A stretch of DNA of 64,000 nt. Origin: Chloroflexota bacterium (GTDB taxonomy: Bacteria; Chloroflexota; Dehalococcoidia; Lucifugimonadales; JADFKI01). A program made the position numbers and the translations under genes. A model generated the notes under the pieces. The model made no database searches. It saw nothing but the letters and a program-made list of their open reading frames with translations, and had not been told where the DNA came from. Shown here piece by piece: positions 8,320-63,234 of the stretch (position 1 is the first letter of the stretch; each line of letters begins with the position of its first letter). The DNA is taken from assembly GCA_027623195.1 (NCBI GenBank), contig JAQBUT010000005.1, positions 31,464-95,463 of the forward strand, written 5' to 3'.

Positions 8320-9450
8320 TCACGTTTGAATATTTAGAAAACTTCGAAACTCGGGACTTGCGACATAATCATTGAAACCATATGGGTACAGTTCGTGGAA
8401 TGGCGGAGGCACTCCAACTCCAATGGATCGAACTCCTCGTTGAAACCGCGAATACGCATCGCCGGTCGCACTTTCGCCTTTGCCAACTACCCGTACGAAG
8501 GACACTGCTGTCGGATGCAAAGTGGAATCAAGAAGCCCTAACAGGTCGTCATCCATCCCACTTGTACCCACTATATGAAATTTATGGCAGCTCTTCAAAA
8601 ACGAAGTCGCTGATGCCACGTGGGCGTCAGGTGCCACAATATCCGTTAAGCCTTTGCCCGCCAGCGGAGCCGTCAGCACAGGATAATACCTGCTGCCGTG
8701 TTGCAATAATCCTGCGACGGATTCGACGTTGTTTTGGATCAAAATGTTTTCTACAGACGTCCTGACTAATGGGTCGAAATCCATTACGACGTCGTTCCAG
8801 GTTCTCTTGTCTCCATTTATCATCTTTTTGAACCAGTTTACCGACCCATGCAGTTTGAGTATCGTCGCTCCACGAATCGGATTGATATAAGCATCCATTG
8901 AATTGAATACGAGATCGGCGTTACGGTCGTAATTGGTAAGTGCCGTTTCTAACAACGTGTCGTAATTAAGTACCAGGAATAGAACATCATGGGGAACTTC
9001 GGCCATCAATTCAGAGATCAGAACCTCGTAATTGCTTGGGGAATGAACGTAACTCGTGCTCGCGAGATGAATAAGGTCTCTTTGGTAACCAGGTACCTAC
9101 TTGAAGTTCTCGCGTGTTTGCGGGTTGCTGTGCTCGGACAATCTTCGTAATTCACTTTCCAGGCTAAATTCGCCTGACGACGATAATTTGAAAGCTAGAC
9201 CTTGGGCGATAAATGCGGCCCCTGGGTACCTCTATAGTACGTCCCAGTAATGACTTTTAAGGTGGATGTCTTGAAAGAGATCACGTGCCAATGGTGGCTG
9301 AAAGTTGTTGCTTCTCAGCGGCGCACCCGGCCCTGCCACGTCATGAGATGCGCCAGCTCCCAATATCACACATATCTTCGGTAAATCAGGCGTTTCAACA
9401 ACCATATGGTATTCCCCCCCTGCATGAAGGCAGTCTCCAATTCGTCCCAT
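8320..9450 (-). pseudogene. SIR2-like (SIR2_2 family) protein gene interrupted by two in-frame TAG codons
   Basis: One reading frame runs from 9450 to 8320 (9450, 9099 and 9009 are all congruent mod 3). It holds ILGAGAS, NYDTLLE, KLHGSVNW and VGTSGMDDD motifs. In-frame TAG at 9232-9234 and 9097-9099, with an open and plausible intervening 44-codon segment. Confidence 0.65.
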
Positions 9451-9578
9451 GGTGGGTTATAGGTAATTCTTGTTGAAGGAGCAATTTTAGTCAATCCGGC
9501 CGTTGACCACTCCCAAGGCATGCCTTAATCTGAAAACAGGTTAAGTCTGGCATATGAAGCTTCGGGAGGCAGGCCAAG

Positions 9579-11012
9579 TTGGCAAATAATCAGGGATCAC
9601 ATCCTCCAAGGCTCCCGCTTCGAGAGACGCTTGACGGTCTGCCACCAGAGTGGCCTCACGACCCTCTGCCGGATATCAGAGCCCTCATCAGCCAATCGGG
9701 CAAGAAGATTGTTGTGTTCGATGACGACCCCACTGGCACGCAGACGGTGCACGACGTGCCGGTGCTTACCGATTACAGCGTGGACGCCCTATGCCGGGAG
9801 ATGGCCGAGGACTTCCCTATATTCTACGTGCTCACGAACTCCCGGGGGCTGCCTGAAATCCCCGCCCGAAAGCTAAACGCCGCCATCGCCATGAACGTAG
9901 CCCAGGCTTCCCAACGCGCGCGCAAGGACTTCATTCTGGTAAGCCGCAGCGACTCAACGCTGCGGGGCCACTTCCCCGCCGAAACAGACTCCATAACTCA
10001 AGCCCTTGACCTGAAATACGACGGACTGGTTTTCACGCCGTTCTTCCTGGAGGGGGGCCGCTACACCATTAATAACGTCCACTACGTGGCAGAAGACGAA
10101 TGGCTGACGCCTGCTGGACAGACCGAGTTCGCACGGGACCCGGCGTTCTCCTTCCAGTCGTCGGACGTCCCCGGCTACATCCAGGAAAAGACCGGCGGAG
10201 CTATCAAAGCGGACGCAGTGACTATGATTTCCTTGGAAGACGTGCGGACCGGAGGACCGGACAGAGTTTCGGAAATACTGTCGCGTGTGAAAGGCCGGGC
10301 AGTCGTAGGCGTTAACGCTGTCAGCATGCGGGACATCGAGGTCTTCATGCTGGGCCTGCTGAAAACAGAGGGGAAGAAATTCATCTTTCGTACAGCAGCC
10401 TCCTTACTTAGGGCCATGCTGGGACAGGAAGGCAGGCCCCTTCTGACGGCATCGGAGATGGACGTCGGCAACGCGGGCGGCGGCCTGACCATCGTAGGCT
10501 CGTACGTTCCCAGGACTACCGGCCAGCTCAACCATCTGCTAGGCAACGGCGAGGTGAAGGGCGTCGAGATAAAAGTCGAGAGATTGCTGGAAGAATCGTG
10601 CCGTTCGGACGAGATTAGGCGGGTACGAGAGGAAATAAACGACCTGTTGCGCGATGGCAAGGATACGGTGGCCTTCACCAGCCGCGAACTGGTAAGCGGA
10701 AACTCTGCCGACGAAAGCCTGCATATTGGCAACACCGTATCGCAGGCGCTGGTGAAGATCGCCAGTTCGCTGGAGGCGCGTCCCAGATACCTTATTGCCA
10801 AGGGGGGCAATACCTGCAGCCAGATAGCCACCGAGGCCTTAGGCGTTCGTCGGGCATGGGCGCTAGGTCAGGTGTACCCCGGCGTACCCGTCTGGCGGCT
10901 AGGAGAAGAGTCTAAGTATCAGGACATGGCTTACGTGGTCTTCCCAGGCAACGTGGGTGGCGACGACGCCCTCACGAACGTCGTGAAAACATTGAGGTCC
11001 CCCCAGTGCTGA
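9579..11012 (+). CDS. Four-carbon acid sugar kinase family protein (DUF1537; OtnK/DtnK-like)
   Basis: N-terminal VVFDDDPTGTQTVHDVPVLT and FYVLTNSRGL motifs typical of DUF1537 kinases, 477 aa. TTG start with GGGAGG upstream. Confidence 0.8.
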   Translation: MANNQGSHPPRLPLRETLDGLPPEWPHDPLPDIRALISQSGKKIVVFDDDPTGTQTVHDVPVLTDYSVDALCREMAEDFPIFYVLTNSRGLPEIPARKLNAAIAMNVAQASQRARKDFILVSRSDSTLRGHFPAETDSITQALDLKYDGLVFTPFFLEGGRYTINNVHYVAEDEWLTPAGQTEFARDPAFSFQSSDVPGYIQEKTGGAIKADAVTMISLEDVRTGGPDRVSEILSRVKGRAVVGVNAVSMRDIEVFMLGLLKTEGKKFIFRTAASLLRAMLGQEGRPLLTASEMDVGNAGGGLTIVGSYVPRTTGQLNHLLGNGEVKGVEIKVERLLEESCRSDEIRRVREEINDLLRDGKDTVAFTSRELVSGNSADESLHIGNTVSQALVKIASSLEARPRYLIAKGGNTCSQIATEALGVRRAWALGQVYPGVPVWRLGEESKYQDMAYVVFPGNVGGDDALTNVVKTLRSPQC

Positions 11013-62110: not shown

Positions 62111-62338
62111 ATGAAGTGGTATACCAACAAGAAAGTGTTGGCAACGTATGGCAACTCCAGCTCCCAAGTCGCGTATGCGAATATCAGCGATGTAGGGTGG
62201 ATACGAATAAAAACCGGGGCTACGGATGCTGTGACGAATATATTTTCCATGATGAACGCCGCCTGCGCCAACGGCAAACTGGTCCACGTAGGGGCTGATA
62301 GCAACAATCAAATAGTTTTGGCCTATTTACTGGCTTAG
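62111..62338 (+). CDS. 75-aa protein paralogous to the M6 protease C-terminal domain
   Basis: About 36 of 73 aligned residues are identical to protease residues encoded at 61817-62035 (WY.NK.V.ATY....QVAY.N.S..GW.RI..G..DAVT......N.ACANG..VHV). AAGGAG SD 6 nt upstream. Confidence 0.6.
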   Translation: MKWYTNKKVLATYGNSSSQVAYANISDVGWIRIKTGATDAVTNIFSMMNAACANGKLVHVGADSNNQIVLAYLLA

Positions 62339-62436
62339 GGCAGCCAGAGAGCATTATTAGAGGAACTCTTGTTGCTGCTAATTGATTTATGCACATCTGG
62401 CCGCGACGCGCGCGAATTTCTACTGGAGGGCTGATC

Positions 62437-63234
62437 GTGGACGCACAAGTGATCATAAACATATCTGGAAGCCCTGGGGACCAGGCCGGTTCTGTCGAAT
62501 CCGAAGCACCCCTAAGCCTCGAACGTTTGGCCGCCATGGGCGGAGCCGAGGGTTCCGACGATTTTGCTGCACCCATGGAGTTAGAAAGACTGGCTGGCGC
62601 GGCGATGGGAGGAGGCGATTGGTCTGCTCCGTTGGCGCTGGAGGATTTATCTCAGATGGCCGCCAAAATGGATGAAGGTGAAGGTACCCCGCCCGTGAAA
62701 CTGGAATCTCTGGCCGCGATGGCCGATGGCCAGGAAATCGGGGACGGCCTGGCACCGCCACTAGACCTGCAGGAACTAATCGCTATGACCTCGGGAGTGG
62801 CCAATATCAGCGCGGCTGTACCCGCAGAACTATCCGAATTAGCCGCGATGGCGTCCGGCACAGCAGGTGATGCCGAAGGAATCCCAATGGAGCTAGAGCA
62901 GCTTATCGCTATGACTTCTGGCGGAGCGTAAGCCGATACGGGAATGCCGCTGGAACTGGAGCAGCTTGCCGATATGGCTGTCGCCTACGGAGAAGACGCT
63001 GGACTGCTAGCCCACACCGAGCTTCACGAGTTGGAGGCGATGGCGGCGAACGCTGGTGAAGGCCAGATACCCGAAGACCCTTTGCAACTGGAGGCCCTAG
63101 AGGAAATGGCTTCTTCTGAGGAGACCGATGACGGCCATGAAGATGATCAATCGCAGGGGGTCGAGGACCACGCCAACGAAGGACTTAATCATCCGCAGTC
63201 TAGCTTTATCCTCTATTTAAGGGGTAAACGTTAG
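62437..63234 (+). CDS. Acidic tandem-repeat protein (10 x P-x-x-L-E-x-L-A-x-M units) with one in-frame TAA
   Basis: GTG at 62437 is preceded by GGAGGG with a 6-nt spacer. Units: PLSLERLAAM, PMELERLAGAAM, PLALEDLSQM, PVKLESLAAM, PLDLQELIAM, PAELSELAAM, PMELEQLIAM, PLELEQLADM, TELHELEAM, PLQLEALEEM. TAA at 62929-62931 lies in a linker and the repeat phase continues across it. Confidence 0.55.

Follow-up and report, generated by a model that had tools for sequence, protein, structure and literature searches.

Stop codons inside recognisable bacterial coding sequence are known from several kinds of system. In pyrrolysine decoding, an in-frame UAG is translated in bacteria that also terminate at this codon; in stop reassignment, a stop codon acquires a sense meaning, as in recoded phages that read TAG as glutamine and in some bacteria with a recoded TGA; and the programmed +1 frameshift of prfB serves the conserved autoregulation of release factor 2. 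In-frame stops also mark pseudogenes that arose by nonsense mutation under relaxed selection, and pseudogenes usually account for a few percent of the genes of free-living bacteria. Here we describe five in-frame stop codons in a stretch of 64,000 nucleotides (the window) from the assembly GCA_027623195.1 of a Chloroflexota bacterium (contig JAQBUT010000005.1, positions 31,464 to 95,463). Four TAGs and one TAA interrupt a SIR2-like gene, a coiled-coil lipoprotein gene, a HEAT-like/WD40 gene and an acidic repeat open reading frame (ORF). They are very probably nonsense mutations that arose independently, became fixed and made pseudogenes of four genes that an uncultured, Dehalococcoidia-type Chloroflexi population can spare. 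A possible origin of the material is the Caspian Sea, which the code MEHR18-1 and PMC5864207 make plausible.

The SIR2-like gene, on the reverse strand (8320-9405; 361 codons), contains two of the stops, a TAG at codon 58 (9232-9234) and a TAG at codon 103 (9097-9099). The third TAG (18144-18146) lies in the forward-strand gene of the coiled-coil lipoprotein (17556-18764), the fourth (45840-45842) in the reverse-strand HEAT-like/WD40 gene (45189-46424), and the TAA (62929-62931) in the forward-strand acidic repeat ORF (62389-63234). Each codon was checked in the sequence. The positions and codons reported in the first-pass annotation, a model's reading of the window's letters alone, proved exact, as did the bases listed 3' of the four TAGs (A, G, G and G) and the statement that the flanking ORFs share one frame at every one of the five stops. 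A stop-split pair of ORFs is by itself unremarkable, since the six frames of the window hold 424 pairs of ORFs, each of at least 30 codons, that are parted by a single stop. The five stops count as real interruptions because homology in three of the genes, and repeat phase in the acidic repeat ORF, crosses each of them without an indel. The earlier description of the ORFs as otherwise continuous overstates the integrity of the genes, in which near-invariant residues of the SIR2-like protein and about six of the eight blades of the WD40 propeller are gone.

The five stops are real alleles, reproducible in independent assemblies. Across the five sites, copies 99.99-100% identical to the window were found in the JGI assembly 3300004369, the ENA assembly ERZ23495042, the NCBI assembly GCA_027619385.1 and the Logan assemblies of runs SRR2027816 and SRR2027830. 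The TAG of the coiled-coil gene is the same in the JGI, ENA, NCBI and Logan SRR2027816 assemblies, that of the HEAT-like/WD40 gene in the JGI, ENA and Logan SRR2027830 assemblies, and the TAA of the acidic repeat ORF in ENA, the NCBI metagenome-assembled genome (MAG) and both Logan assemblies. Two MAGs at NCBI, with the locus tags O2821 and O3A33, list these split products as well, and NCBI assigns the products to a 'Chloroflexi bacterium'. For the SIR2 region, five runs of another project (SRR217001xx) yielded a distinct strain with 99.2-99.3% identity to the window, and both TAGs are kept in it. The identity of the sites across assemblies and the presence of the SIR2 TAGs in a distinct strain exclude a consensus or assembly error, which the first-pass annotation had named among the findings that would undo its reading.

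The joined SIR2-like sequence matches Pfam SIR2_2 and returned 373 homologs; among the 120 listed, most are single ORFs of 340-370 residues, aligned with a coverage of 94-100%. The GAGAS nucleotide-binding motif is N-terminal and is encoded 5' of both stops; the annotated product of 229 residues consequently lacks it. At codon 58, TCG for serine is present in the nearest homolog, which is 71% identical, and the family column there is variable, with glutamine a common residue. At codon 103, the same homolog has CAG for glutamine, in a column occupied by histidine, glutamine or tyrosine. A comparison of the window with the variant strain reveals 10 nucleotide differences within the gene, which amount to 7 codons with a replacement and 1 with a purely silent change, against 11 replacement and 13 silent codon changes in four flanking genes of the same two strains (Fisher one-sided P = 0.047). 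Invariant or near-invariant columns of the family (I14, L108, L185 and F269) are hit by four of these seven replacements, which are spread over both strains. The window has a glutamine at the near-invariant Leu108, with two adjacent substitutions at 9083-9084 (CAA in the window, TTA in the variant), and the variant strain has methionine for Ile14, arginine for Leu185 of the KLHGS motif, and serine for the invariant Phe269. The excess of replacements and the loss of invariant residues indicate that constraint on this gene is relaxed. Judged from these substitutions, it is probably an old pseudogene that was inactivated before the two strains split and has been drifting since.

The neighbours of the SIR2-like gene are metabolic genes, and the gene is a stand-alone member of the Pfam SIR2_2 family. 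Known SIR2 defence systems (Thoeris ThsA, DSR and SIR2-pAgo partners) gave only weak, partial PADLOC matches, with E values of 6e-5 to 3e-3 over 50-80 residues. The pentamer GTACC, which follows both TAGs of the gene, was rejected as a coincidence: it stems from the conserved codons of R-Y-P and V-P-G, which the homolog also has.

The HEAT-like/WD40 gene comprises 411 codons and encodes a collapsed propeller. Its homologs P0122 and P0123 and 15 metagenome loci, 17 sequences in all, read through the position of the TAG. Full-length relatives are 617-676 residues long (L101, with 617 residues and 8 blades; L105, with 676 residues) and have the same N-terminal domain and C-terminal tail as the window's gene. 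In the latter, two WD40 blades are left, which are 87.6% identical to each other in DNA. The gene is therefore doubly damaged, having lost most of the propeller in frame and acquired the TAG, and its two blades against eight represent a lesion additional to the stop. At the position of the TAG the relatives have serine (AGC), glutamate (GAG), glycine, glutamine (CAA), valine, cysteine, isoleucine or asparagine, a column too variable to point to one ancestral codon. Two further observations concern this family: blade number varies widely within it, from 1 in P0123 and 2 in the window to about 8 in L101, and one metagenome contig (L103) carries two tandem paralogous copies of the gene.

The coiled-coil lipoprotein gene comprises 402 codons and displays a lipobox (LLAAAC). 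Two orthologs, P0125 and P0126, are intact proteins of 390 and 395 residues, 65-66% identical to the joined sequence, that span both halves. P0126 is syntenic with the window and shares aroA, response regulator, amidohydrolase, deacetylase and lipocalin neighbours with it. At the position of the TAG, the syntenic ortholog (locus L096) has GAG for glutamate and a second locus (L097) has GAC for aspartate; the lesion is most simply explained as a GAG to TAG change, that is, a G to T transversion. The nearest relatives by aroA in GTDB are Dehalococcoidia MAGs with at most 73% identity, and none of them carries either the SIR2-like or the coiled-coil gene near aroA. The mutation would be young, because the branch leading to the window is not accelerated in either half of the coiled-coil gene, and the gene is best regarded as a young null allele.

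In the variant strain, the N-terminal product of the coiled-coil gene (P0132, from five Logan contigs) differs at 4 of 178 residues and ends six codons before the TAG of the window. It terminates after the residues QGTED, where the next codon of the window is GAA (18126-18128). This early end hints at a lesion of the variant strain that is either added to the TAG or present instead of it; a GAA to TAA change or the insertion of a T would explain it. A search for strain variants of the coiled-coil and HEAT-like/WD40 loci by way of neighbouring proteins found only contigs 100% identical to the window.

The acidic repeat ORF is an orphan of 281 codons built from about ten units of the form P-x-E-L-E-x-L-x-x-M. 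No true homolog was found among 1.84 billion representatives, the two weak matches being low-complexity noise. Units start at residues 145, 166, 187 and 209, so that the TAA, which falls at residue 181, does not disturb the spacing of 21-22 residues. Gene callers annotate the ORF as two products, of 164 and 96 residues. The case for this ORF is weaker than for the other three genes, as its continuity is argued from internal repeats; the ORF nevertheless fits their pseudogene pattern, with a loss of function that may be presumed from the stop. Close to it, in an ORF on the forward strand (63444-63860), the window and the ENA and NCBI assemblies (L118 and L119) differ at position 63500 in the copy number of a 12-bp unit, GTTGAAGAACCA, which encodes VEEP. 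This difference represents a small in-frame tandem-repeat polymorphism.

Uninterrupted homologs bear out the earlier claim that the SIR2-like, coiled-coil and HEAT-like/WD40 genes were each a single ORF, and we agree that all the affected genes are of accessory type (conflict, surface or repeat proteins). A plain course of events would account for their present state. Spontaneous point mutations, from GC to AT wherever their direction can be inferred, would have hit codons one step away from a stop. Since such codons mostly end in G (GAG, CAG, AAG, TCG and TGG), the usual product would be TAG, and release factor 1 would presumably terminate at the new TAG, the commonest natural terminator of the lineage. 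The truncated products would have no function or not be needed, the remainder of the gene would come under relaxed selection, and further lesions would follow, such as the second stop and the lost invariant residues of the SIR2-like gene and the lost blades of the HEAT-like/WD40 gene.

The expected share of TAG was computed with transitions weighted 1 to 4 times against transversions, using the codon usage either of 36 confident genes of the window or of the four genes that carry the stops. TAG makes up 46-56% of the single-step nonsense mutations under this codon usage, and the probability of at least four TAGs among five stops is 0.14-0.27. The 4:1 excess of TAG thus requires no special explanation. 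A coding score based on codon usage was also tried for the systematic detection of in-frame stops and was discarded as too weak, as true genes reach 0.26 ± 0.17 per codon.

TAG is a working terminator in this lineage. The 36 confident genes of the window end in TAG (18), TAA (11) or TGA (7), and the long ORFs of nine related Dehalococcoidia loci in about 45 TAG, 37 TAA and 31 TGA (about 40% TAG). Bacteria usually employ TAG least among the three stop codons, and termination dominated by it looks like an unusual trait of the lineage; literature searches on pseudogenes in SAR202 and on how Chloroflexi use TAG found nothing relevant. In aroA, a polysaccharide deacetylase gene and the coiled-coil gene, the terminal TAG is at the position where the orthologs end, and TAG and TAA interchange at the C-terminus of aroA across relatives. 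The first-pass annotation had considered TAG a normal terminator and global reassignment unlikely; with half of the confident genes and conserved C-termini ending in this codon, global reassignment is excluded.

The genes might still be functional if the TAG or TAA were usefully read through, by means of a suppressor tRNA, pyrrolysine or a leaky stop that depends on its context. Such read-through, also proposed in the first-pass annotation, would be in keeping with the four TAGs among five stops, with the stability of the stops across samples and with the coiled-coil gene, in which the sequence before and after the stop is well conserved and no branch is accelerated. We consider it very unlikely. 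The codon that would have to be read through is the most frequent terminator and ends genes at conserved C-termini, one of the five stops is a TAA, and the in-frame stop is not conserved in orthologs, which have GAG, GAC, CAG, TCG, AGC and other ordinary, variable sense codons in its place. In the 100 nt after each stop, no RNA structure stands out against shuffled sequences (z = -0.18, 1.20, -0.19, 0.63 and 0.12). The searches for tRNA genes covered the window and the related loci retrieved with it, where ARAGORN found only a tRNA-Pro(GGG) and no CUA or other suppressor tRNA, and an Rfam scan returned only tRNA-Pro and no recoding element. None of the affected genes belongs to a Pyl-dependent methyltransferase family, and the replacements at invariant residues of the SIR2-like protein, which evolves in a near-neutral manner, are at odds with a product that is still made and used.

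A burst of cytosine deamination (C to T or G to A) was the other explanation put forward on first reading, from the observation that each stop is one transition away from a sense codon. This is formally correct and provides no evidence, because it is true of every TAG or TAA. The CAG of the nearest homolog at the second SIR2 site would fit such an episode, and CAG to TAG is there the only clear transition. The best-resolved site is the G to T transversion of GAG to TAG, for which a syntenic ortholog is available; the first SIR2 site would be a C to A transversion if the TCG of the nearest homolog is ancestral, and is ambiguous because glutamine, and with it CAG, is also common in the family. 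A further transversion comes from a related species (L096, positions 1-733), whose gene order around aroA is that of the window: in a gene of the F_bP_aldolase family, an in-frame TAA stands in place of the window's GAA (G to T). This TAA also implies that nonsense-split genes occur in the clade beyond the species of the window. The 33 differences between the strains consist of 19 transitions and 14 transversions by a hand tally, with no excess of transitions, and codon usage makes 43-75% of the nonsense paths in these genes transversions at kappa values of 1-4. The stop-making changes that can be inferred all run from GC to AT and not specifically from C to T, and GC to AT is the general direction of bacterial mutation. 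A deaminase-type episode is, on these grounds, about as improbable as read-through.

A more elaborate possibility, for which we see very little chance, is that the amber codons act as a conditional switch, by which accessory or defence-like genes, such as those of the SIR2-like protein and the surface lipoprotein, would stay silent until an amber-suppressor tRNA arrives, for instance from a stop-recoded phage. Were this so, an in-frame TAG would be an infection sensor. The idea might just accommodate the apparently intact coiled-coil gene and stops that are stable from sample to sample; the neutral decay of the SIR2-like gene, the presence of a TAA among the five stops and the collapse of the WD40 propeller weigh strongly against it.

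Two remaining explanations are practically excluded. The flanking ORFs are listed as separate products by gene callers, but for three of the four genes the homologs listed, the window's own fragments aside, cross the stop position as single ORFs, and the 229-residue SIR2 product is devoid of the GAGAS motif. Sequencing or assembly errors might be feared in a MAG of which most retrievable copies probably come from one project, but the bases at all the sites agree among five pipelines and no fewer than two separate runs, and the SIR2 stops recur in the distinct strain from five unrelated runs. Taken as a whole, the first-pass interpretation was right about genuine interruptions, accessory genes, the absence of global reassignment and the presence of further lesions, whereas its deamination signature and its read-through found no support.

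Other genes of the window are damaged as well. A Peptidase_M6 gene, similar to immune inhibitor A (60280-62038, forward strand), has a 1-nt insertion in its HExxH motif (61198-61216). The site reads CAT GAA TTG GGT T CAT, so that HELG and the final H are joined only after a change of frame, and the Pfam profile is divided at positions 235/237 between two ORFs; ENA, NCBI and Logan assemblies show the split too. A remnant of a luciferase-like monooxygenase gene (46428-46976, reverse strand) covers only positions 30-188 of the 314 of the Bac_luciferase profile. Its end, TGA TAA, abuts the start codon (ATG) of the HEAT-like/WD40 gene, and two TAAs (46977-46979 and 46995-46997) lie in frame just upstream of it. 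The GC content is raised to 0.61 over 44-46 kb, which suggests that an insertion in this region truncated the monooxygenase gene. An alpha/beta-hydrolase remnant (54184-54870, forward strand) matches only positions 69-237 of a profile of 245 and lacks the N-terminal third, the first 68 or so positions being unmatched. The same-frame stretch upstream, which contains TAA at 54235-54237 and 54250-54252, would be too short to form the fold, and the region of about 950 bp in which the remnant lies (53318-54264) holds no convincing gene.

The three or four single-nucleotide frameshifts counted earlier in the window thus include a true lesion, that of the Peptidase_M6 gene, and one that is no lesion. 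The latter is located in prfB (4412-5513, reverse strand; TIGR00020, 448.7 bits), where the motif CTT TGA C at 5444-5450 is the canonical programmed +1 site.

Several points weigh against reading the five stops as nonsense mutations in dispensable genes. About 7 of roughly 58 genes in the window are damaged, which is high for a free-living planktonic bacterium and leaves room for something specific to the lineage. The strain comparison of the SIR2-like gene is small (8 versus 24 changed codons), with a P value of only 0.047. The branch of the coiled-coil gene that leads to the window is not accelerated, the unique changes per half being 17/20 in the window versus 21/23 and 16/33 in the orthologs, and the loss of function of this gene would be deduced from its stop and the hint of the variant-strain protein. 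The acidic repeat ORF has no outside support, even for being a real gene, and the negative results for suppressor tRNA and pyl genes apply to the window and the related loci.

Nonsense mutation in dispensable genes nevertheless remains the reading that we strongly favour, and its consequences for the biology of the genetic code are slight: a candidate for recoding is removed, and codon usage alone yields the TAG bias. For annotation, the loci should be flagged as pseudogenes and not as pairs of hypothetical proteins. With respect to genome evolution, young pseudogenes seem to be densely present in a planktonic Dehalococcoidia population whose preferred terminator is TAG.

A comparison with the described systems places the five stops among ordinary pseudogenes. 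They resemble pyrrolysine decoding of UAG by pylTSBCD in that in-frame TAG coexists, within one bacterium, with termination at this codon. By contrast, TAG is here the most used terminator and not a rare one, the genes are not methylamine methyltransferases, the residues of the homologs at these sites are variable, and neither downstream structure nor pyl genes nor a tRNA-CUA were found in the sequence examined. Stop reassignment shares with this locus the in-frame stops in recognisable coding sequence, and one site aligns with a glutamine of the closest homolog; it differs in that all three stop codons end genes here at conserved C-termini, and in that the 64 kb hold only five in-frame stops, all of them in genes that show decay in other ways. 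The programmed frameshift of prfB is a true recoding event inside the window, and yet it belongs to the conserved autoregulation of release factor 2 and has no connection with the five stops.

The closest match is with nonsense pseudogenes under relaxed selection, with which these genes share single-base in-frame stops, intact homologs, an accessory character (defence-like, surface or repeat proteins), secondary lesions, near-neutral ratios of replacement to silent changes, and inferred changes that all run from GC to AT. There are two differences: the proportion of damaged genes exceeds the few percent usual in free-living bacteria, and stops made by substitution outnumber frameshifts. Nonsense-mutation pseudogenes are a kind of feature already known, and the load carried by this window is an ordinary, though rather dense, example of it.

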